Source: Minisyncoccia bacterium
GTDB taxonomy: Bacteria > Patescibacteriota > Minisyncoccia > Phycocordibacterales > UBA9973
NCBI GenBank assembly: GCA_049287305.1
Contig: JBAQFO010000014.1
Span: 128,453 to 192,452 of the forward strand
DNA: 64,000 nt
Reading direction: 5' to 3'
The translations under genes were made by a program, and so were the position numbers. The notes under the pieces were generated by a model, which was given only the letters and a program-made list of their open reading frames with translations, searched no databases and was not told the DNA's origin. This document shows, piece after piece, positions 15,491 through 60,957 of this stretch (position 1 is the first letter of the stretch; each line of letters begins with the position of its first letter).

Positions 15491-16537
15491 CTACTTGAGG
15501 GCGAGATAACCGTGAATGTTCTGCACGGCCATTGCGCCTTCTGCGACGGCCGAGGCGATTCGCTTGATGGAGCCGTGGCGGACATCGCCAGCGGCGAAGA
15601 CTCCTGGCATTGAAGTCTCCATAAAGAAAGGTGGACGAGGCAGCTGAGTCAGACGCCAGTGACCGGTGGGAACGTCGTTACCAGTGTAAATCTGACCTCT
15701 CTCATCCAACGCGATGCCGTCCGGAAGCCACTTGGTTTTCGCTACGCTTCCGATGGAGATGAACATCTCCTTGGCGTTCACGACTTCATTCCCCGTCGGC
15801 GAGGTGATCACCACCGACTCAAGGCGGGGGTCGCCGTGAGCCTCTTTGACTTGGGAGTTGTAGTGCATGACGATGTTTGATGCCGCCTTGATGCGCTCGA
15901 TGAGGTATGCCGACATCGTGGAGGAAAGGGCCTCGTTTCTCACCACCATGTGAACCCGGCACCCTTTCTGCTTACAGAGAAAGATGACGGCCTGCCCTGC
16001 GGAGTTTGCTCCGCCGACCACAACCACATCCCCCTCGTATGACTCATCGACTTTCGGAGAGCCATACTTCACTCCCCGTCCGATGAGCCTGGCGACACCT
16101 TCCACTTCAAGAGGACGGTAAGACACGCCGAGCGCGAGAATGACGGTGCGAGTTGGGATGATGGTCCCATCTTCCGTAGTTACGAGAAGCTTGCCGTCCG
16201 ACTGCTGAACGTTGCTGACTCGTGCTGGCACCATGAAGACGGTGCCAAACTTCTCGCACTGAGAAATCGCTCGGTCTGCCAGCTCCTTACCAGTGACTCC
16301 CGCCGGGAAACCGAGAAAGTTCTCGATTGAAGTTGATTCTGCCGCCTGTCCGCCACAACCATCCGTGCTGCGTTCCACTATCAGGGTCGTCAGCCCCTCC
16401 GATTCGGCAGTGATAGCTGCCGACATTCCTGCCAGTGAGAATCTCATTCTGCTAAAGACTGCGGACAAAGGCCGGTATTTAATAAAATGCTTACTGACAT
16501 AAGAGAAGGAAAATTCGATGGAATACTTGTCTGGCAT
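15491..16537 (-). pseudogene. GC-rich TrxR-like flavoprotein oxidoreductase (FNR/TrxR fold, no CxxC); N-terminus replaced and GxGxxG degraded
   Basis: GDVRHGSIKRIASAVAEGAMA C-terminal FAD motif and VVVVGGANSAGQ NAD motif. The N-terminal dinucleotide motif reads FSLAGMSAA instead of GxGPAG. The first ~30 codons of the tracked ORF lie in AT-rich sequence with no homology. The gene body is markedly GC-rich. Confidence 0.5.
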
Positions 16538-17566
16538 CCAGATCGCCTTGCTCGAAATGCCGGAGACCTAGGAGCGATCGTAGACCTGTTAGATCAAAAG
16601 AGATTAATAGAGATAAGAACGTATAGTCAGCACTTCACAAATAATCCGAATGAGAAGTTTCTACTAATGATTCTTGGTAGTCAGGCAAAACTAGAGAATG
16701 ATAATAAAAGTATAAATGTAAAACGTGGATTAAAAACACAAGTCGAAAATGGATTATGGCCCAGTGTTGCTCCCACTGGGTATTTAAATGCAAAAAATAA
16801 AGATCAGAAATGTCATGTATTTGTTGACCCAGACAGAGCACCAGTCATGAAAGAGATCTTTGTAAAGGTGGGACACCAAGGATGGAGTGGTAGAAAAGTT
16901 TTTAGATGGCTCAAAGATATAAAATTTGTAACACGCACAGGCAAACCACTAACTCTTAGTAATATTTATGTAATCCTGAATAACCACTTCTACTATGGAA
17001 GCTTTGAGTACCCAAAGAAAAGTGGTCGATGGTTTCAAGGTAAGCACATACCGCTAATAACAAAAGATTTATACGATGATGTTCAGAAACAATTACACTT
17101 ACAAATAAAGGCTCATGGAAGAAATAAGGAATTTGCATTTACGCGAATGCTAACCTGCGGGGCATGTGAGTCTGGGGTCAGTGCGCAAGAAAAGTATAAA
17201 ACTCTAAAAGATGGTTCGGTAAATAAATACATTTATTATGGATGTACTAGAGCCAGAGATATAAACTGTAAAGAAGGATATATTGAAGAGAAAGTATTAA
17301 TAGACCAACTACTTGGGATAGTAGATAAAATAGATTTGGACAAATCAGGGATAAAGAAAAAGCTTGAAGTAGAAATTGAACGACATAAAAAATTCCATTC
17401 AGGAATAATGGGTAAACCAAAAGAAGAATATTCAGCCAAAGATGCTGACATAAGAAATTATGCAAAATATTTACTTACCGAGGGATCAGTATTTGAAAAA
17501 AGAGATTTGCTAGGCTGTTTAAAAAGTAAAATAAACTTAAAAAATAAAGTAGTTTCAATAAGTTAA
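16487..17566 (+). pseudogene. Large serine recombinase, 5'-truncated (catalytic Ser region missing)
   Basis: Starts inside the resolvase domain (GKFDGILVWHPDRLARNAGDL), about 70 aa short of the catalytic Ser. The recombinase domain and zinc ribbon (CGACESG...YYGCTRAR) are intact. A TAA sits immediately upstream in frame. Confidence 0.65.
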
Positions 17567-26861: not shown

Positions 26862-26912
26862 AGCCGGCACTCACATTACTCCTTTCGGATGTGGCCGGCT
26901 ACTCGAGAGTTG
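26862..26912. terminator. Bidirectional terminator
   Basis: TAGCCGGC(AC)...GCCGGCTA 8-bp perfect stem with inner CACAT/ATGTG, followed by a T-run on the minus strand. Confidence 0.55.
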
Positions 26913-26991: not shown

Positions 26992-27816
26992 TTATGGAAT
27001 CGGAGTAGTTGTCACACCCCGCGAAGGATTGTAGCGATACAGATACGTATCACATCTTCCTCCACCGTCCACGATGGTGACGAGGTTGTCTCCTTCGTAG
27101 ATGATGCCCTCCCCGTTATCAGGGTTGTAGAGCTCAACCTCCATTCCCTCAGGCGTTCGAGTGATGGATTCGTCCGAGAGGGCATAAAAGTTGACGAGAA
27201 CCCGAGCATCACCACTCTCTGTGATGACCTTCATGCGGTTGCTCACTTGCACTTCATTGATTCCGAAAGAAGGCGAGCCGTAGAAGTTCATGTCAGAGGA
27301 CAGGGTCACCATCTCCTCTCTCTCGGGGTCGAATACTCGAAGGAAAAGCGTCGGCGCTCCCTCCAGAGTCAGCATCGGTGGGATTTCGCCATACCAGAAC
27401 GAGATGAACCAGTCTCCCTCTTCTTCCACGGAGAAGGCGCCGGTATTGAAACGTTTCCCGGTCGGGTATTCAAGAATCGGGACTACCACCGAGAATCGGT
27501 GCAGGTGGCCTACGAAGGAAAGCACCTTGTAGGCGCTGTCCTTGACGATAGCGCCGTCGAACTCGGGGTCAGCTGAGGGATTGTGATTCGTCGACGCGAC
27601 GTTGCGTCGTGAACCTTCCTCACCCATGATGCGATTGATGAGCGCGTGGTCGTGAACGAGCCGGGTTCCGCTGCCGGGCTTGCCGATTTCGGACGTGGTG
27701 ACCTTTCTGACGCCGGTCGGGAGCTTGCGCTCCTGGCCCGACACGACGAAGGTCGCGAACGAGAAAACGACGGTCATGATGACGAGGAGCGCAGTGATGA
27801 GGTTACGGAGTTTCAT
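26992..27816 (-). CDS. Hypothetical secreted/membrane-anchored protein, GC-rich gene
   Basis: N-terminal hydrophobic anchor LITALLVIMTVVFSFATFVVS. 274 aa with no recognisable domain. 60-nt samples at 27001-27120 counted 50-57% GC. Confidence 0.5.
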   Translation of the reverse strand: MKLRNLITALLVIMTVVFSFATFVVSGQERKLPTGVRKVTTSEIGKPGSGTRLVHDHALINRIMGEEGSRRNVASTNHNPSADPEFDGAIVKDSAYKVLSFVGHLHRFSVVVPILEYPTGKRFNTGAFSVEEEGDWFISFWYGEIPPMLTLEGAPTLFLRVFDPEREEMVTLSSDMNFYGSPSFGINEVQVSNRMKVITESGDARVLVNFYALSDESITRTPEGMEVELYNPDNGEGIIYEGDNLVTIVDGGGRCDTYLYRYNPSRGVTTTPIP

Positions 27817-40806: not shown

Positions 40807-42513
40807 TTAATATACTTCCTGTTTATAACAAGTCTCGCAATAAATTATCGGTGCGTAAGATTCGGTGTACACGGTTTCCACTTCCACACTGCATTTGCCA
40901 CAATTGCGTTTTATTAATTTCAACGGCGGGCGTTTGGCAATCCGGCGCATGTGTCGGACATCAAAACAAACCCGAGGTAAAGGAAGATTCATTCTCCGGT
41001 AAAAAGCCAGCTCGTTCGGCGTAATGCGATATGCCCCGACAGAAAATGGGCTATCTTTTTCACCGCACTCAATTACTTCTTTAAGGACGGAATCCTCAAC
41101 TTCCTCTATTGTCTCGGGCAGTTCCCCGCTTTTTATTGTTGTTTCATAATTCTTTTTTTCTTTATCTTTCCACCTATAACCTTTTTGTAAAGCTTCTTCT
41201 TTTGTCAAAGGGGAGAAATCGTAGGCGGCAGTTTCGTTATAGGCGAAAGTGGAAAGCTGTTCGGGAAAATGTTCCCCAAACCCATGCTTGAGTCCTCTAT
41301 TATCAACGAACGGCATATCTTTCATGTGCTCTATTATCTTGGTAACAAGAGCTTCGTAATCTTCTTTGGTGTATTTTTTATTTAAAATAGAATACTCGCC
41401 TTTCTTTAAGCCAATACATCCGAAGCAATTTCCAGCTCCGGGACAGGAGTCGCAGTAAGTAAGGTCATGAGCGCCCATCCAGCACTGGGTGGAAAAGGAA
41501 ATTCTGGAACAATTAATTCCGCAGTTCTCGGATTCATATATCAATTCCGAATTATTCCCCCACTCAAAGTAGTCCATACAGTCTTGGGCATCAAAAACCG
41601 AAAAAAGAAACTTGCCGTCCTTAACACTAAGTGAATCAAATGATTGGTGGACGTTTTTGGAATTAGAAAACCAATTACCGGAAACATTTTCAGATTTCAC
41701 CGAGTTAATTGCTTTTTGCGGGAATTTTTTTCTGAATTCGGGAAATTCTCTCTCCATTTTTTCTATTCCGGTTGCGGTGTGAAGCCCAAGTTCCTTCAAT
41801 TTTTCAAAATACTCTTCTTTGGAGTAAGGCTCGTTCCAAATATGAAATTCTTTATTCACAAGGTTTACGCAACCGACGCAATTGGAACAATTCCTGCAAG
41901 AATACAAGAAAGAGGAGTCCCGGCAATTACTGCTTTCCTGGGAGAATCTAGTATTGTAAGAATTCTCGCAGTTAATACATTCATAGCAAAGTTCTAAGTT
42001 GTTAACCCAGGCGCAGTCACTAGTGTCTTTTATTCTTTCAACCACATAAGAATAAAAAGAATCCGTCGGACTCGTTGCCCTGAAAACCATGTAAGAATTC
42101 TTTGGGTCGGTGACTCTGTGAACGTAAGGGCTGTTCACGGACATCCCCTGACGAACCAAGGACATCTTCGGAACCTTGTTTAGAAGCTCTTGGAATTGTT
42201 CAAAGAAGGGTTTTGAAAAATCATAATCAATTCCATAGTCATATGGATTCCAGTCGTCGGAATACCATTCCTCTGTTTCGTAAACAGGAAATGGGGCCTC
42301 AATCGGATACATGGAAAAAATGTCTTTTCCGCTTAAGTCGCTTTTCCGCTTATATAAAACTCTTTCCCCGGTGCTTGCCAAACGTCGGACGAAGCGGCAA
42401 TCCGGACAAAATGTCGGGGGCAGAACTTTTATTTTTTCGTAAAATCCAAAATCATCCGTTTCTATAATAAAATCTTTTTTACAATTTTGACAATTCTTTG
42501 TTTCGGATTGCAT
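40807..42513 (-). CDS. Cysteine-rich protein with terminal zinc ribbons and internally duplicated CxxC/NC/GC modules; paralog of 1..1093
   Basis: N-terminal CQNCKKDF...CPDCR, C-terminal CGKCS...CETC. Two internal modules of form C..C.NC.GC(V/I).L.NK...I.N..Y(S/T)KE(E/D)Y. Confidence 0.55.
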   Translation of the reverse strand: MQSETKNCQNCKKDFIIETDDFGFYEKIKVLPPTFCPDCRFVRRLASTGERVLYKRKSDLSGKDIFSMYPIEAPFPVYETEEWYSDDWNPYDYGIDYDFSKPFFEQFQELLNKVPKMSLVRQGMSVNSPYVHRVTDPKNSYMVFRATSPTDSFYSYVVERIKDTSDCAWVNNLELCYECINCENSYNTRFSQESSNCRDSSFLYSCRNCSNCVGCVNLVNKEFHIWNEPYSKEEYFEKLKELGLHTATGIEKMEREFPEFRKKFPQKAINSVKSENVSGNWFSNSKNVHQSFDSLSVKDGKFLFSVFDAQDCMDYFEWGNNSELIYESENCGINCSRISFSTQCWMGAHDLTYCDSCPGAGNCFGCIGLKKGEYSILNKKYTKEDYEALVTKIIEHMKDMPFVDNRGLKHGFGEHFPEQLSTFAYNETAAYDFSPLTKEEALQKGYRWKDKEKKNYETTIKSGELPETIEEVEDSVLKEVIECGEKDSPFSVGAYRITPNELAFYRRMNLPLPRVCFDVRHMRRIAKRPPLKLIKRNCGKCSVEVETVYTESYAPIIYCETCYKQEVY

Positions 42514-48055: not shown

Positions 48056-48099
48056 TTTTCAGCACATATGCTATCTTCGTAGTGAAAGGAGCTCTTCGT

Positions 48100-48255
48100 A
48101 TGAGCGTAGTCGAGGGCAAAACTCCCGTCGAGAACGACAATGCGCACTGGGAAGGCGCAGCAGACGAACCCCACACCCCAACTGCATCAACAACACCTCT
48201 TTTTGAGTGGCCTTATCCCGACGAGGGCCACGGGGAGGAAGCTCACGAAAAGTGA
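48100..48255 (+). CDS. Small acidic protein (51 aa) in a GC-rich island
   Basis: AAAGGAG Shine-Dalgarno 8 nt upstream. MSVVEGKTPVENDNAHWEGAADEPHTPTASTTPLFEWPYPDEGHGEEAHEK. Confidence 0.4.
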   Translation: MSVVEGKTPVENDNAHWEGAADEPHTPTASTTPLFEWPYPDEGHGEEAHEK

Positions 48256-48269
48256 GGAAGGAGCCGGAA

Positions 48270-48452
48270 ATGGCCAACGAAGAATGGTCAGACGCCAACA
48301 TTGGAGGATGTTGTAGCGGAACAGGCCCCGGAGGGCAGTCCATCGCCGACACCTCCGATTCCAACGACCCGAACGACCCCGTCGTCGTCACCAGCGACGG
48401 ATCTCGAATCCACACCAACGTTCGGAGTCCCGATGAATTGGTGGGAAAGTAA
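48270..48452 (+). CDS. Small acidic protein (60 aa) with GGCCSGTGPGG motif in a GC-rich island
   Basis: GGAAGGAG SD 6 nt upstream. MANEEWSDANIGGCCSGTGPGGQSIADTSDSNDPNDPVVVTSDGSRIHTNVRSPDELVGK. The tracked 81-aa ORF begins further upstream, but this ATG is the SD-supported one. Confidence 0.4.
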   Translation: MANEEWSDANIGGCCSGTGPGGQSIADTSDSNDPNDPVVVTSDGSRIHTNVRSPDELVGK

Positions 48453-48456
48453 TCCA

Positions 48457-48497
48457 CCGCCTGAAGAGAAGCGACCGCGCTCTCACAGGCGGTTTCT
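48457..48497. terminator. Hairpin plus T-run terminator
   Basis: CCGCCTG...CAGGCGG 7-bp stem followed by TTTCTCTTTTT. Confidence 0.5.
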
Positions 48498-48501
48498 CTT
48501 T

Positions 48502-57318: not shown

Positions 57319-57633
57319 TTAGTATTCTCTTCGTCCTCCACCACCGTATCCACCGTTTCCTCCACTAGATCGTGGGGGTCGAGCTTCCATAGGGCGAGCT
57401 TCATTGACTGTAAGTTTGCGTCCTTCGAAATCTTGGTCGTTGAACATAGAGATAGCTTTCGCTGCTTCATCCTGAGATGACATTTCTACGAATCCAAAAC
57501 CCTTTGAACGACCAGACATTTTGTCCATGATAATCACAGCAGAAACAACGTTTCCAGCTTGTGCGAAGAGGTCCCTAAGGGCGTCTTCTTGAGTGCTGTA
57601 AGGGAGTCCCCCTACATATAGCTTTGTAGCCAT
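57319..57633 (-). CDS. RRM-type RNA-binding protein with Gly-rich tail
   Basis: RNP1 KGFGFVEM and RNP2 LYVGGL. The tail is SSGGNGGYGGGGRREY. Confidence 0.85.
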   Translation of the reverse strand: MATKLYVGGLPYSTQEDALRDLFAQAGNVVSAVIIMDKMSGRSKGFGFVEMSSQDEAAKAISMFNDQDFEGRKLTVNEARPMEARPPRSSGGNGGYGGGGRREY

Positions 57634-57790
57634 ACTTTTATACTTCTCCCGTTTTTGAAAAATCGGGCAAAAACTATTTAATAAACCTGCTACAAAGAGT
57701 AATCTTTCTAGCCGGCGTAGAAACTCTTTTTCGCTAAATGAGGCCTACAAAAAAATAATACCATATAAAAAATAAAATGCAATCGGCAGA

Positions 57791-57847
57791 AAACTTTTTC
57801 GTCCTTTTGGACTCATCAGGCAAGACACACATCTTGCGAAAGCCCGG
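57791..57847 (-). ncRNA. Candidate type-III hammerhead ribozyme
   Basis: Minus-strand RNA GGGCUUU C^ GCAAGA-UGUGUG-UCUUGC CUGAUGA GUCC-AAAA-GGAC GAAA AAGUUUU. It has NUH = UUC at the cleavage site, stem I of 6 bp, core CUGAUGA, stem II GUCC/GGAC (G10.1:C11.1), core GAAA, and an open stem III AAAGUUU/GGGCUUU. Confidence 0.45.
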
Positions 57848-57958
57848 ACAGAATGATGCTGTCCGACCTGGAGGAACTCCAGGATTTTGATGTTGGCCGG
57901 CTGACGCGCGGCCTGACGATTCCTGTTTTAGTGGCGAAGGAACATTTCGCGTGGAGGG

Positions 57959-58453
57959 TCAGTGGCGGCGAGGAGGAAGCGTGATAATGCTGAATTCGAA
58001 ACTGTGGACTGGATTCGAATCCTCCTGTGGATGCCGACAGAGACAGTTCGGACAGATCGGGTCCGTCGTCGCGAGCTTCCAGTTGGCGCGAAGGACGAGT
58101 CCTTCGGTACCAAAGAGGTCGAACTCTGCTTGGACCGCCGACCAGAAGAAGCTGGTGGCCGCCTGAAGCTGGCCGGCGATCTTGTTCGTCCGGCTCGCGA
58201 GTTCGTGCATTTCCTCCGGCATCATCTGGTTGAGGTCGTCGAAGGTGAGTCGCTGAACCTTGGCGACTTCAGCGTTGCGCTGCTCTGTCAGCCGGCAGAT
58301 GAGCGCCCAAAGCTTCTGGAGCTCTTCCGAAAGAATGCCGGCCTCCTCCTCGCCCGCGTACGTGCGGATCAGTTTGAGGCGGTCTCCAGCGATGGCAACC
58401 TCATCTGGCGTGACGGTGGCGAGATGTTCCAGGAGTCTTTCGATCAGTTTCAA
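57959..58453 (-). CDS. Hypothetical soluble protein, GC-rich gene, probable TTG start
   Basis: AGGAGA SD 6 nt before the TTG. 164 aa with a CPNCLC motif near the C-terminus. The antisense 173-aa ORF is Arg-rich and was rejected. Confidence 0.45.
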   Translation of the reverse strand: MKLIERLLEHLATVTPDEVAIAGDRLKLIRTYAGEEEAGILSEELQKLWALICRLTEQRNAEVAKVQRLTFDDLNQMMPEEMHELASRTNKIAGQLQAATSFFWSAVQAEFDLFGTEGLVLRANWKLATTDPICPNCLCRHPQEDSNPVHSFEFSIITLPPRRH

Positions 58454-58565
58454 GGTGATTCTCCTATTCTGCTATTAAACTAACCTTATTGAATTAGCCA
58501 CAGCTTCAAAAAAATAAAAAATTATTACTCTCTTGAAACTATGGCTAAAATGTAAAGAACGCTAC

Positions 58566-58626
58566 ATACTCTGGCATTATAGCACACTTTATACCAGTTT
58601 GTCAAGTAAAAAACCCTTACTAATCA
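58566..58626 (-). promoter_or_regulatory. Repeat module copy A: terminator hairpin (of the DUF805 gene) plus TTGACA-N18-TATAAT promoter facing 57959..58453
   Basis: Minus strand reads AACCTTGATTAGTAAGGGTTTTTT then TTGACAaactggtataaagtgtgcTATAAT. About 85% identical to copy B at 59897..59955. Confidence 0.55.
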
Positions 58627-58680
58627 AGGTTTTTTACTGCGCATGTAATAATAGTTTTACAAATTTATTATTTATGATAT

Positions 58681-59106
58681 TTACGCAACGGGAGCAACAG
58701 CAGGAGGAGTAGGCGCTGCTGGCATTCCCTTTGGGTTTTGGCCGTATTTGTTGTCTCCGGCATCCGAATCTCGGCACAAGAACACCAAAAGAACTATCCA
58801 TCCTACTATGGGAATAAGCCACATAAACCACCACCAACCGCTGTGGTTAGTATCGTGCAATCTTCTGATAGTCACGGCGATAGAAGGCACCAACACAGCC
58901 AAAGAGTAAAGAGATGTCAGCACGCCTGTTTCGTAAGTAAATGCTCCCATGTTTTTTGTAATGTTCAAACCCGTAACAGATTCAACAATGGATAAACCAA
59001 TGCTGATAAGAAAGTTGAAGAGCACGAACATCCAAAACTCTCGTCTCCTTGACCTGCCGTCAAACATCGCGTATTTTTTAAAAACAACCGTTTTAAATTC
59101 TTCCAT
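58681..59106 (-). CDS. DUF805-family inner-membrane protein
   Basis: RRLHDTNHSGWWWFMWLIPIVGWIVLLVFL signature. Confidence 0.6.
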   Translation of the reverse strand: MEEFKTVVFKKYAMFDGRSRRREFWMFVLFNFLISIGLSIVESVTGLNITKNMGAFTYETGVLTSLYSLAVLVPSIAVTIRRLHDTNHSGWWWFMWLIPIVGWIVLLVFLCRDSDAGDNKYGQNPKGMPAAPTPPAVAPVA

Positions 59107-59272
59107 GTTTATAATATTTGTTATGAATAATTAATACACACGAATTATACAATATTCAATAAAAATTAGTAAAGGCCATTCAACGTTTGAAGAATGGCCT
59201 CTGATTGTCTGCTCACGCGAGACCTACGGTCCTTATTTTTTTGCGCGGGGGAAACTTCCCGCTTCGTCATCG

Positions 59273-59875
59273 TCAGAGAATTTCTTTCAGTCGGACAAGC
59301 CGGCTCAGGAAAACACTGACGGCGTTGAGACTCACCCATCCGAGCCAGACATGGACCAGCTCCATCTCCGGCCGGTGTCGCCAGAACATCGGCAACACCG
59401 CTTCCCACGTCAGAAACAAGACGTATGGGAAGACGACGAAGAGGATGATCAGATTACCCAACTGCCTGAGTGGCGGAATACTGGTCAGAAGCCAGAATCC
59501 AACGCAGGCCAGAAGAGCAACCTTGGCGCCGTCGGGAACGTGGTACCACGCGTAGTTGTTCCGTAGCCACGCTCCGACGCACAGCGCAGCGAAGACGATG
59601 AAGATCAATACGACGTGGTTGAATCGAACCCCTCCCGCAGCGCGAGCGACGAGCCGCTTGCCCGTTTCCGCCATCGTCGGGAAACTCCTGACGAGTAAGT
59701 AGACGAGGTATACGAGAAGAACTGCCTTCATGTGCAACCGTGGAAGATACGAGTAGCTGTTCCACAGAAGCATTATGAAGACGAGAACCAAGAACTTCAC
59801 GACCCATGTCATGAACTTCTCGAATGTCGTCAACCCCATGAACTTGAAAATGTACTTCGCGAACTCTCCAAACAT
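59273..59875 (-). CDS. Hypothetical polytopic membrane protein, GC-rich gene
   Basis: AGGAGG SD 8 nt before the ATG (MFGEFAKY...). Roughly five hydrophobic helices. The tracked ORF start at 59926 is the TTG of the promoter -35 box. Confidence 0.5.
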   Translation of the reverse strand: MFGEFAKYIFKFMGLTTFEKFMTWVVKFLVLVFIMLLWNSYSYLPRLHMKAVLLVYLVYLLVRSFPTMAETGKRLVARAAGGVRFNHVVLIFIVFAALCVGAWLRNNYAWYHVPDGAKVALLACVGFWLLTSIPPLRQLGNLIILFVVFPYVLFLTWEAVLPMFWRHRPEMELVHVWLGWVSLNAVSVFLSRLVRLKEIL

Positions 59876-59896
59876 CGGTGAATCCTCCTGCCGCAT

Positions 59897-59955
59897 ATTA
59901 TAGCACACTTTATCCCATTTTGTCAAATAAAAAACCCTTTATTCTTAAGGGTCTT
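59897..59955 (-). promoter_or_regulatory. Repeat module copy B: TTGACA-N18-TATAAT promoter abutting the SD of 59273..59875, plus an upstream hairpin and T-run (probable prfA terminator)
   Basis: Minus strand reads ACCCTTAAGAATAAAGGGTTTTTT then TTGACAaaatgggataaagtgtgcTATAATatgcggcAGGAGGattcaccgATG. Confidence 0.55.
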
Positions 59956-59985
59956 TTACCTTCTGTGTTGAAAAAATTTCTTGTT

Positions 59986-60957
59986 TTATTCCTCCTCCTC
60001 GTCCCCTACGGCACCGGATTCTATGTCATTAATTATATCGCTTATATCCCCTTCCATTATTTTCGGCAAATTGTGCCAGGATTTTTTGATGCGATGGTCA
60101 GTCACTCGGTCTTGGGCAAAATTATATGTTCGTATTTTCTCGCTTCGGTCTCCGGAACCTATTTGGCCCTTTCTAATCCCCGCATGCTTAGCAGCTTCTT
60201 TTTCTTCTTCCAGTTGTTGAAGTTTATTTGTTAAAATAAGCATCGCTTGTTCTCTGTTGGCAAGCTGGCTCCTTTCGTTTGTTGACCTAACGTCAAGACC
60301 AGTTGGTTTATGAATTATACGAACAGCAGTTTCAACTTTGTTAACATTCTGTCCGCCTTTTCCACCGGAGCGAGAATACTCCATTTCAAATTCTGCTGGG
60401 TTTACTATAAAAGTTATTTTCTTACGAATAGGAAGCACTGCCACTGACGCCGTGGAGGTGTGCACTCGTCCGTTCTTCTCGGTTGCGGGGATTCTTTGGA
60501 CTCTGTGGACTCCGGTTTCGTAGCGCATTTTTTTATAAACATCCCGCCCTTTTATTTCAAAACTTGCTTCCTTGTAGCCGGAAAGGTCGCTCTTTGACTC
60601 ATAGTTTACTTTCCATTGCCACTTCTCCGCTTCGGAAAACTTTTCATACATATGCGCCAGCTCCCACGCAAAAAGAGAAGCCTCGTCTCCTCCGGCTCCC
60701 GCCCTTACTTCAAGCACAATTTCATTGGGAAATTCTTCGGCTTCTTTGTCTTTGTCTAAAATATCTTGAACTTGTTTTTCTATTCTTTCCCTTTCTTCCT
60801 GGAGAGTCTTCAATTCTTTCCCAGCCAGCTCGTGAAGTGTGTCGTCAGAGTCCAGCATCTCCCGAACTTCCGCTTCTTCGCGCGCCAAACGCTCAAGCTC
60901 TCCCGCAAGGTAGCTTGTGTTGTGATTCTTTTTAAGTTCTTCTAGATCAAGAGACAT
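59986..60957 (-). CDS. prfA: Peptide chain release factor 1
   Basis: GGQ motif (GGQNVNKVETAVR) and the RF1-type PAT tripeptide (RIPATEKNGRVHTS). Confidence 0.85.
   Translation of the reverse strand: MSLDLEELKKNHNTSYLAGELERLAREEAEVREMLDSDDTLHELAGKELKTLQEERERIEKQVQDILDKDKEAEEFPNEIVLEVRAGAGGDEASLFAWELAHMYEKFSEAEKWQWKVNYESKSDLSGYKEASFEIKGRDVYKKMRYETGVHRVQRIPATEKNGRVHTSTASVAVLPIRKKITFIVNPAEFEMEYSRSGGKGGQNVNKVETAVRIIHKPTGLDVRSTNERSQLANREQAMLILTNKLQQLEEEKEAAKHAGIRKGQIGSGDRSEKIRTYNFAQDRVTDHRIKKSWHNLPKIMEGDISDIINDIESGAVGDEEEE

Follow-up and report, generated by a model that had tools for sequence, protein, structure and literature searches.

The window analysed here, a stretch of 64,000 nucleotides (64 kb), comes from a metagenome-assembled genome (MAG) of the Minisyncoccia (Patescibacteria), and its genes include topA, ATP synthase, ribosomal-protein, tRNA and relA-like genes. 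Between prfA, which encodes release factor 1, and a gene for an RRM-type RNA-binding protein lies an insertion that contains two copies of a module of about 60 bp, each composed of a terminator-like hairpin and a predicted sigma-70 promoter, and each preceding a GC-rich open reading frame (ORF A and ORF B). We describe the anatomy of this module, the units that it opens, a hammerhead ribozyme predicted at the end of the ORF A unit, and the related units in other genomes.

An insertion between prfA and the RRM gene

Close relatives were located via prfA (loci L015, L017 and L018, with 95%, 91% and 89% prfA identity, respectively; L numbers designate loci from other genomes and contigs). All three have the gene order L31, prfA, RRM-protein gene and ATP synthase, with a spacer of 84–183 bp between prfA and the RRM gene. 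Nucleotide homology (blastn) between the window and these relatives ends at the prfA stop codon (window position 59986) and restarts at approximately position 57782. The adjacency of the two genes in the relatives, together with these breakpoints, shows that the window carries a 2,203-bp insertion (Table 1). The insertion comprises three self-contained units, in the order module B with ORF B and its 3′ untranslated region (UTR); a DUF805 membrane-protein gene; and module A with a leader, ORF A and a 3′ element. The DUF805 gene is absent from the spacer in the relatives and belongs to the same insertion, a point that an earlier note made from the sequence of this window had missed. It matches PHROG 12855 (4.9e-30), a generic membrane-protein PHROG filed in the category 'moron, auxiliary metabolic gene and host takeover'.

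In several other loci, too, this spacer has occupants. In L068 it holds a different 83-amino-acid ORF with a GC content at third codon positions (GC3) of 0.69, in L027 it holds four GC-rich ORFs, one of them a homologue of ORF A, and in L016 a homologous hairpin-plus-promoter module lies directly after prfA, at the end of the contig. The varied GC-rich occupants of these loci and of the window indicate that the spacer is a lineage-specific hotspot for GC-rich insertions. Exactly at the position of the window insertion, the spacer of L018 contains an extra hairpin of 45 nt (ATTCACCTCACCCCAGCCCTCTCCTTGTTAAGGAGAGGGCGAAAG; L018 7967–8015), which ends in GGCGAAAG and adjoins the shared TTTTGCATTT. 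This hairpin may have been left behind by a cassette since lost, or it may be a small insertion of independent origin.

The repeated module

The two module copies, on the minus strand at 58576–58637 (copy A) and 59897–59959 (copy B), are 84.1% identical over 63 nt in a blastn comparison within the window (E approximately 7e-13), and a gap-free repeat comparison of the whole 64 kb aligns 58576–58635 with 59897–59956 at 83% identity. The duplicated module that the earlier note had described is therefore real, and its copy A begins and ends about 10 nt away from where that note had placed it (58566–58626). Both copies have the order A-tract, stem, loop, stem, T6 run, two bases and TTGACA. Their hairpins are homologous to each other in sequence alignment, and both the predicted folds (z-scores in Table 1) and the T6 run bear out the terminators proposed in the earlier note as terminator-like elements. 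The perfect TTGACA, 18-nt spacer and TATAAT that it had listed are present in both copies, with an extended −10 element (TGTG) in addition.

This promoter is rare in its surroundings. TTGACA-N16-19-TATAAT occurs at two sites in the 64 kb, those of modules A and B, against 0.05 expected, and the 30-mer promoter core is found at up to three mismatches only in the two modules (0.00 expected in the window). Other promoter-like sites of the window have an extended −10 element (TRTGnTATAAT) without a good −35 hexamer. The composite junction pattern AAGGGTTTTTTAYTTGACAAA has no match in viral contigs.

The likeness of the two copies extends beyond the functional elements. Outside the −35, TGTG and −10 consensus elements, 12 of the 14 promoter positions are identical, and the junction between the T-run and the −35 hexamer, TTTTTTA(C/T)TTGACAAA, and the stem ACC(C)TT...AAGGGT are also common to both. 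Past the leader of copy A the likeness resumes in the Shine–Dalgarno region, GGAG(A/G)AT(T)CACC. The identity of the non-consensus spacer, the stem and the junction argues for shared descent, and we regard modules A and B as homologous and not convergent. Convergence on optimal terminators and promoters by functional constraint (TTGACA, TRTG, TATAAT, a GC stem and a T-run) would account for the consensus elements, which make up 16 of the 30 promoter positions, and would fit the occurrence of the same 23 specified bases in distant genomes of the Candidate Phyla Radiation (CPR), in one Clostridia MAG and in phage contigs, a recurrence that shows the spacer ATAAAGTGTGC to be widely favoured. It is nevertheless very improbable, given the identities outside these elements, the reach of the similarity into the Shine–Dalgarno region and the lack of any other window promoter that approaches the module promoter in sequence.

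The ribosome-binding site that the earlier note had assigned to the end of each module is found there in copy B, 7 nt past the −10 hexamer; that of copy A comes only about 115 nt later, after a conserved leader that bears a hairpin. The Shine–Dalgarno sequence of ORF B is followed by the heptamer ATTCACC.

Table 1 Features of the insertion, its flanks and a further GC-rich gene of the window
Feature	Positions	Strand	Basis and remarks
prfA (release factor 1), conserved left flank	59986..60957	−	Pfam PCRF and RF-1 domains
Insertion of 2,203 bp relative to close relatives	57783..59985	−	blastn breakpoints, spacer lengths
Module B hairpin and T-run, intrinsic-terminator-like, behind prfA	59927..59959	−	Fold −13.5 kcal/mol, z −4.4, then UUUUUU
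Module B promoter (predicted)	59897..59926	−	Promoter scan; TTGACA, 18-nt spacer, TGTGCTATAAT; 12/12 consensus and extended −10
Shine–Dalgarno sequence AGGAGG of ORF B	59884..59889	−	8 nt 5′ of ATG, 7 nt 3′ of −10 hexamer
ORF B, 200 amino acids, about five predicted transmembrane segments	59273..59875	−	Five hydrophobic segments; GC3 0.73
ORF B 3′ UTR	59160..59272	−	About 62 nt resembling the first part of the 3′ element of ORF A; a terminator-like hairpin follows
ORF B terminator-like hairpin with T-rich tail	59173–59200	−	Read from the sequence
DUF805 membrane-protein gene, host-like GC	58681..59106	−	Pfam DUF805, 1.4e-35; own weaker promoter 59144–59173
Module A hairpin and T-run, intrinsic-terminator-like, behind the DUF805 gene	58606..58637	−	Fold −12.4 kcal/mol, z −3.8, then UUUUUU
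Module A promoter (predicted)	58576..58605	−	TTGACA, 18-nt spacer, TGTGCTATAAT; equals module B at 28/30 positions
ORF A 5′ leader, 122 nt	58454..58575	−	Motif GTTCTTTA(C/A)AT; GGAG 7 nt before TTG start
Leader hairpin, nearly perfect, about 24 bp	~58495–58548	−	Fold −35.8 kcal/mol, z −6.8
ORF A, 164 amino acids, soluble, TTG start	57959..58453	−	GC3 0.73; unannotated protein family
Structured 3′ element of the ORF A unit	57847..57958	−	Hairpin series, the last abutting the hammerhead; fold z −3.8
Type III hammerhead, 58 nt, near 3′ end of insertion	57789..57846	−	Predicted cleavage after C at 57838
RRM-type RNA-binding protein gene, conserved right flank	57319..57633	−	Pfam RRM_1, 1.1e-21
Further GC-rich gene, 274 amino acids, N-terminal signal or anchor segment	26992–27816	−	GC3 0.69; between topA and a RelA/SpoT-like gene

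The GC-rich open reading frames

ORFs A and B have GC contents of 0.59 and 0.54, respectively, and their common GC3 of 0.73 compares with a median of 0.41 for the 67 ORFs of the window, in keeping with the earlier description of a GC-rich gene behind each module copy. In both, GC content follows the order GC3 > GC1 > GC2 among codon positions. This signature and, for ORF A, the conservation of the protein identify the two ORFs as genuinely protein-coding and compositionally foreign in their codon usage, and the same two observations rule out that the GC-rich islands are structured non-coding RNAs.

The two proteins differ in their relatives. A word-index search of 5.8e9 proteins returned ORF B only as a match to itself, and no match was found in IMG/VR, PHROGs, PADLOC or any fetched locus. 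For ORF A, too, the word-index search gave no match but the protein itself. When 1.8 billion cluster representatives were scanned in full with HMMER, 28 matches to ORF A, including itself, were obtained at E ≤ 1e-3, seven of them at E ≤ 1e-10. The lack of detectable homology asserted in the earlier note thus stands for ORF B in the searches run, but not for ORF A, which has 27 other matches at this threshold. All but two of the HMMER matches are 144–218 amino acids long, and the alignment shows the motifs VG.L..L.KLW, FFW..V..EF and R.GW.V...P.C..CG.RH. An AlphaFold2 model computed from the family alignment has a predicted local distance difference test score (pLDDT) of 87.3 and a predicted template modelling score (pTM) of 0.81, and no structural match to it was found in BFVD or the Protein Data Bank (PDB). 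ORF A belongs to no Pfam, PHROG or PADLOC family. It is therefore a member of a conserved, unannotated family of 150–190-amino-acid proteins and not an orphan, and its confident predicted structure without a PDB or BFVD match makes the family a target for functional study.

The island of ORF A is open throughout on both strands (57962–58483 on the plus strand, 57959–58453 on the minus strand), and gene calls differ. NCBI gives the minus-strand ORF of 164 amino acids, and Logan, on an identical contig, gives an antisense ORF of 173 amino acids. Codon-position GC and the protein family, with homologue N-termini that agree with the TTG start, identify the minus strand as the coding one. That the locus is an artefact, through assembly chimerism, contamination or mistaking structured non-coding RNAs for genes, might be suspected from the GC jump from about 0.41 to 0.60 and from the disagreement of gene callers over the strand of ORF A. 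The chance of this is next to negligible: an independent Logan assembly of run SRR28062879 contains an identical contig of 3,246 bp that spans prfA to the RRM gene, other samples contain analogous GC-rich inserts that have this promoter, leader and hammerhead as well, and the minus-strand frame is marked as coding by its codon-position GC and by the conserved protein family.

Leader and 3′ regions

The leader of ORF A is dominated by a long hairpin that the earlier note did not record. In L027 a hairpin of 21 bp (z −4.7) occupies the same position, with a conserved base and a wholly different apical sequence. The length of the hairpin would suit processing by RNase III or stabilization of the messenger RNA (mRNA). 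Matches to Rfam microRNA and small nucleolar RNA families at 58491–58552, obtained at permissive thresholds, are not credible and reflect this long hairpin. The leader motif GTTCTTTA(A/C)AT is present in four of five ORF A units, those of L028 and L069 among them.

The 3′ regions of the two GC-rich units are related as well. The 3′ UTRs of ORFs A and B, which are themselves unrelated, share approximately 62 nt at their start (local alignment score 35, reached by 0 of 2,000 shuffles). Beyond this, the ORF B unit proceeds to its terminator-like hairpin, and in the ORF A unit no recognizable terminator was found, with the hammerhead lying at its end. The structured 3′ element and the hammerhead together are 80% identical over 166 nt to L027 4180–4341 (E 1e-31), where they stand behind an unrelated ORF of 416 amino acids. 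Compared by eye, two stems of the 3′ element differ on both sides between the window and L027 with their pairing kept (GGCCG/CGGCC against GCCGG/CCGGC, and CGGACAG/CTGTCCG against GTGCAGA/TCTGCAC).

A probable hammerhead ribozyme of a phage-associated class

The hammerhead, likewise overlooked before, consists in order of the stem III 5′ strand GGGCUUU, C17 at the predicted cleavage site, stem I with its loop, GCAAGA(U)-GUGU-(G)UCUUGC, the core segment CUGAUGA, stem II, GUCC-AAAA-GGAC, the core segment GAAA and the stem III 3′ strand. The catalytic core is complete (C3 U4 G5 A6 N7 G8 A9, G12 A13 A14, A15.1–U16.1 and H17). Stem I comprises 6 bp and one U–G pair, stem II 4 bp and stem III, which is open, 7 bp. 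The Rfam model RF00008 scores the window copy at 37.3 bits (E 7e-6 for the region, 2e-4 for the window) and that of L027 at 34.8 bits. At permissive thresholds the hammerhead is the sole credible non-tRNA match in the window, and at gathering thresholds a search of the whole window returned four tRNAs only. With both copies under the gathering threshold of RF00008, hammerheads of this phage type may be under-annotated.

The 23-nt core is identical in 36 contigs of IMG/VR (exact matches). Nearly all of these have one layout, in which a hairpin precedes a short stem III, followed by a GUC-type cleavage site, by stem I with the loop U-GNGU-G and by the core. These hammerheads (loci L032–L067) mostly lie about 10–30 nt 5′ of a start codon and have an identical stem II and core and a stem III of 4 bp. 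When 31 sequences are aligned without gaps, pairing holds in 99.8% of the cells, and 122 cells carry changes on both sides, where shuffles give 32 and none of 500 attains the observed figure. Every variable pair has changed on both sides with pairing kept, and slid controls drop to about 37% paired. A covariance model built from the 29 phage copies only scores the window hammerhead at 66.9 bits, a value in which stems I and III and loop 1 alone are independent evidence, because the phage set behind the model was picked for the same 23-nt core. We conclude that the hammerhead is very probably genuine and of a phage-associated class; its cleavage is predicted from full conformity to the active-type core and from covariation. 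A script and the class-specific model found no further type III hammerhead after ORF B, after the gene at 26992–27816 or elsewhere in 251 kb.

Published work has already placed hammerheads at the flanks of single genes in prophages (Perreault et al. 2011, PMC3088659), with which the window copy agrees. With such phage and prophage hammerheads (RF00008, clan CL00010) the window copy shares the full core, the three stems, the intergenic position and the place at the end of a single-gene unit, and with the IMG/VR copies specifically it shares the identical core, loop 1 (U-GNGU-G) and the preceding hairpin. It differs from them in being a single copy and not one of a tandem or flanking pair, in lying in a CPR chromosome, and in having a stem III of 7 bp instead of about 4 bp.

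Related units in other genomes

Homologues of ORF A are everywhere GC-rich relative to their hosts (GC3 of 0.56 against 0.25 in L028 and 0.56 against 0.30 in L069; 0.79 in L029) and occupy different settings. In L027 and L028 they lie at the prfA/ATP-synthase locus, and in L028 the homologue is preceded by a homologous hairpin-plus-promoter module. In L029 (1–260 and 780–840) the homologue lies in an element beside a tRNA 3′ end, with a ParB_N-domain gene nearby; the tRNA end gatccctacccccggagca is repeated approximately 170 nt downstream, forming an att-like direct repeat, and two successive small units open with the same promoter module GGAGCAAATATTGACA.... In L069 it lies beside unrelated metabolic genes and a tRNA. 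A promoter of the type TTGACA(AA)...GCTAT..T, or TTGACAAA...GCTAT, precedes the homologue in every case (L027, L028, L029 and L069), so that the ORF A unit is found with the same predicted promoter type and leader motif in at least three genomic contexts.

The earlier note had taken the promoter for a host consensus promoter. It is instead atypical for the host: in 148 kb of loci from this lineage, the type TTGACAAA...GCTAT stands only before GC-rich cassette genes, and it appears to travel with the GC-rich cargo. Of the eight GTDB genomes that match TTGACA-N7-ATAAAGTGTGCTATAAT exactly, seven belong to the CPR, and several of the matches precede GC-rich ORFs.

These loci bear on a simpler explanation, in which the module is a one-off local duplication, or gene conversion, of an ancestral terminator–promoter region that is not portable, the GC-rich genes having come by unrelated transfers. 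The proximity and same orientation of the only two copies in the 64 kb agree with it, as does the lack of a recombinase nearby, and ORF A homologues at the same locus in several relatives would fit a long-resident gene with its own promoter. Homologous modules nonetheless occur elsewhere, after prfA in L016 and before the ORF A homologue in L028; in L029 and L069, tRNA genes adjoin an ORF A unit that has this promoter type; the two GC-rich units of the window have 3′ UTR sequence in common besides the 5′ module, although their ORFs are unrelated; and L029 has a duplicated promoter module of its own. We therefore consider a purely local duplication unlikely.

Some of the sequences around such promoters have an unusual composition. 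Directly 5′ of the module and the ORF A homologue in L028, about 800 nt (L028 526–1325, identical in L030) are GC-rich and apparently non-coding, with long-range inverted repeats (for example ttccgcctcgggcattttccgctagggtg ... ccctagcggaaatgcccgaggcgga) and the internal repeat motif ggg(g)atgg.gagggcagac; no Rfam match was found at E ≤ 0.1, and the region could represent a large structured RNA or what is left of an element. Past very similar promoters in L016 (8045–8114), L019 and L020 there is no obvious Shine–Dalgarno sequence or ORF, and the contigs have motifs in common, among them GGAAGGG and AATTCACCCC. Rfam searches of loci with similar promoters returned tRNAs only. GC-rich, ORF-poor regions also follow the same promoter in L007 (2020–2180, a Saccharibacteria MAG) and L021 (980–1150, an unclassified JGI metagenome contig) and share the motif (c)tctgcctcgcac. 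The L007 region matches no Rfam family at the gathering threshold (the search covered L007 and not L021), and the two may represent an undescribed non-coding RNA under a strong promoter.

A proposed cassette system resembling those of phages

Taken as a whole, the evidence makes it moderately probable that the 60-bp repeat is a composite terminator–promoter cassette and that the locus represents a cassette system in a Patescibacteria chromosome similar to the PeSLs and morons of phages. Such an arrangement has so far been described mainly in phage genomes. In the mechanism that we propose, the hairpin of each module would stop transcription arriving from the upstream gene (prfA for module B, the DUF805 gene for module A) and so insulate the unit, and the sigma-70 promoter is predicted to drive high, autonomous expression of the foreign ORF. 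In the ORF A unit, the leader hairpin is plausibly a processing or stability element, although this is speculative. The type III hammerhead would cleave itself, leaving the ORF A mRNA with a hairpin-protected 2′,3′-cyclic-phosphate end and separating it from read-through into the RRM gene. The second module copy most likely came with the second cassette, or by recombination during its insertion. By analogy with the PeSLs of T4-type phages, the conserved flanks could serve as portable homology for the exchange of unrelated ORFs.

PeSLs (promoter-early stem-loops; Arbiol et al. 2010, PMC2839356; Comeau et al. 2014, PMC4122927) are repeated stem-loops with sigma-70 promoter and Shine–Dalgarno motifs that precede orphan genes in the hyperplastic regions of T4-type phages, and by recombining with one another they exchange unrelated ORFs and give rise to mini-circles. 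The window resembles them in having a short repeated stem-loop and promoter motif, with a Shine–Dalgarno sequence close behind it in copy B and past a structured leader of 122 nt in copy A, 5′ of orphan-like, non-essential ORFs in a variable region, in that indels between close relatives map to this region, and in that the repeats provide homology between unrelated ORFs. Both module copies lie in the variable insertion before an orphan or near-orphan ORF; the promoter elements of both agree with the sigma-70 consensus that characterizes PeSLs, and their stem-loops end 2 nt before the −35 hexamer. There are also differences. The window module lies between housekeeping genes in a Patescibacteria chromosome, with two copies seen in 64 kb as against about 50 per phage genome; its stem-loop is wholly upstream of the −35 hexamer; its cargo is strongly GC-shifted; and PeSL units have not been described with a 3′ structured element and hammerhead, such as are present in the ORF A unit.

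Morons (Cumby, Davidson and Maxwell 2012, PMC3594210) provide a second parallel. As in these, the window units have their own promoter and a GC content unlike that of their neighbours, ORF B has its own terminator-like hairpin, the extra DNA lies between genes that are adjacent in relatives, and the DUF805 gene falls in the 'moron' PHROG category. The window units differ in lying outside a phage or prophage, in that the ORF A unit ends in a ribozyme and not a terminator, and in sharing a homologous 5′ module, which does not form part of the moron definition. Because PeSLs and morons both belong to a phage context and the window cassettes do not, the latter would work like, but are not members of, either class. 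From the phage-type hammerhead and the moron-like anatomy, we propose by analogy that the cassettes came from the gene pool of phages or other mobile elements.

Integron cassettes with attC sites are similar in forming an array of ORFs in the same orientation, with structured 3′ elements, at one insertion site. They differ in that no integrase was found for the window units, which have strong promoters of their own, and in that the window 3′ element consists of a ribozyme and hairpins and not attC. Typical integron cassettes lack a strong promoter of their own. The related proposal, that these are site-specific cassettes, integron-like or borne on a transposon, with the hairpin or the 3′ element as recombination site, gains some ground from the form of the units, each an ORF with a structured 3′ element, in one orientation and at one hotspot, and from the tRNA-end direct repeat beside the related unit in L029. 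We consider it very improbable. There is no integrase or transposase in or beside the insertion and no recombinase ORF in the interval 55–64 kb (the window as a whole was not scanned for IntI), and the sole recombinase noticed in the window is a serine recombinase at 16487–17566, approximately 40 kb away. A predicted strong promoter accompanies each unit, the hammerhead and its supporting hairpins account for the 3′ element, and neither terminal inverted repeats nor target duplications were seen (attC structure was not modelled).

The earlier note had suggested a portable expression cassette or repeated capture of foreign ORFs. The foreign, self-contained units, the insertion of 2.2 kb and the homologous modules in L016 and L028 bear this out in part, as do the several contexts of the ORF A unit and the sequence shared by the two 3′ UTRs, and the mechanism of mobility is one that we infer. 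Several observations weigh against a PeSL- or moron-like system. The two module copies are the only ones in the 64 kb and stand 1.3 kb apart. Neither in the insertion nor next to it was a phage, integrase or transposase gene found; its ends, inspected by eye, have no recognizable target-site duplication or att-like repeat; and no relatives of ORF A or ORF B were found in the viral contigs of IMG/VR. The right boundary of the insertion is the hammerhead and not a second module, so that recombination from module to module fails by itself to explain the whole insertion. Exact matches to the promoter pattern TTGACA-N7-ATAAAGTGTGCTATAAT are few (8 GTDB genomes and 8 JGI contigs), and behind some of them lie genes without a high GC content. 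In Rfam the hammerhead falls short of the gathering score of 48.5 and for that reason would not be annotated automatically, and the confinement of its independent support to stems I and III and loop 1 counts on the same side.

A broader version of the cassette reading, which we offer tentatively and regard as rather doubtful, is that CPR chromosomes host a cassette system of their own, in which GC-rich orphan genes circulate ready for expression, framed by two handles, a 5′ terminator, promoter and Shine–Dalgarno module and a 3′ structured RNA that in some cases ends in a hammerhead. Recombination between these handles would exchange the units at a small number of hotspots, the spacer between prfA and the RRM gene being one, and the system would possibly be fed by CPR phages.

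The genomes of CPR bacteria (Patescibacteria) are small and streamlined, and how they gain and express new genes is poorly understood. At this locus, foreign genes seem to come equipped with insulation, a promoter and RNA-processing signals of their own and to collect at a defined hotspot beside essential genes. If this were true across genomes, it would extend a mechanism of T4-type phages to bacterial chromosomes, as a counterpart of PeSL shuffling and a route of gene gain in streamlined genomes. It would also provide a sequence handle on accessory genes that uncultured lineages have acquired recently and probably express at high levels, strong promoters and terminators as candidates for use in CPR genetics, and a natural case of a hammerhead as the 3′-end-forming element of a single-gene unit.

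Other GC-rich and repeated regions of the window

The gene at 26992–27816, which the earlier note had included in the pattern as a third GC-rich gene, shares the codon bias of ORFs A and B but lacks the module. It was rejected as a third module copy, its upstream region having no blastn similarity to the module and its 3′ UTR no significant resemblance to that of ORF A (P about 0.08). The gene has a terminator hairpin of its own at approximately 26862–26905, and no match was found in Pfam, PHROG or PADLOC.

A gene for a thioredoxin-reductase-like flavoprotein (15491–16537, minus strand; GC3 0.65) shares with ORFs A and B the bias towards C-ending codons. The low-GC serine-recombinase-like gene (16487–17566, plus strand) adjoins it with a slight overlap, and the module is absent. 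The region 15491–17566 may be another acquired island.

A further GC-rich island (48060–48500, plus strand; GC 0.57), flanked by a PriA-like gene and a gene of the opposite strand, contains two small ORFs, 48100–48255 (51 amino acids) and 48270–48452 (60 amino acids, GGCC-rich, with an acidic product). Both have good Shine–Dalgarno sequences and are followed by a strong terminator hairpin. A longest-ORF approach misreads the island as a minus-strand ORF, and no Rfam match was found in it. Two direct repeats, 795–1083 and 42221–42509, lie 41.4 kb apart and are approximately 70–73% identical; they look like paralogous coding sequence and have no connection with the module.

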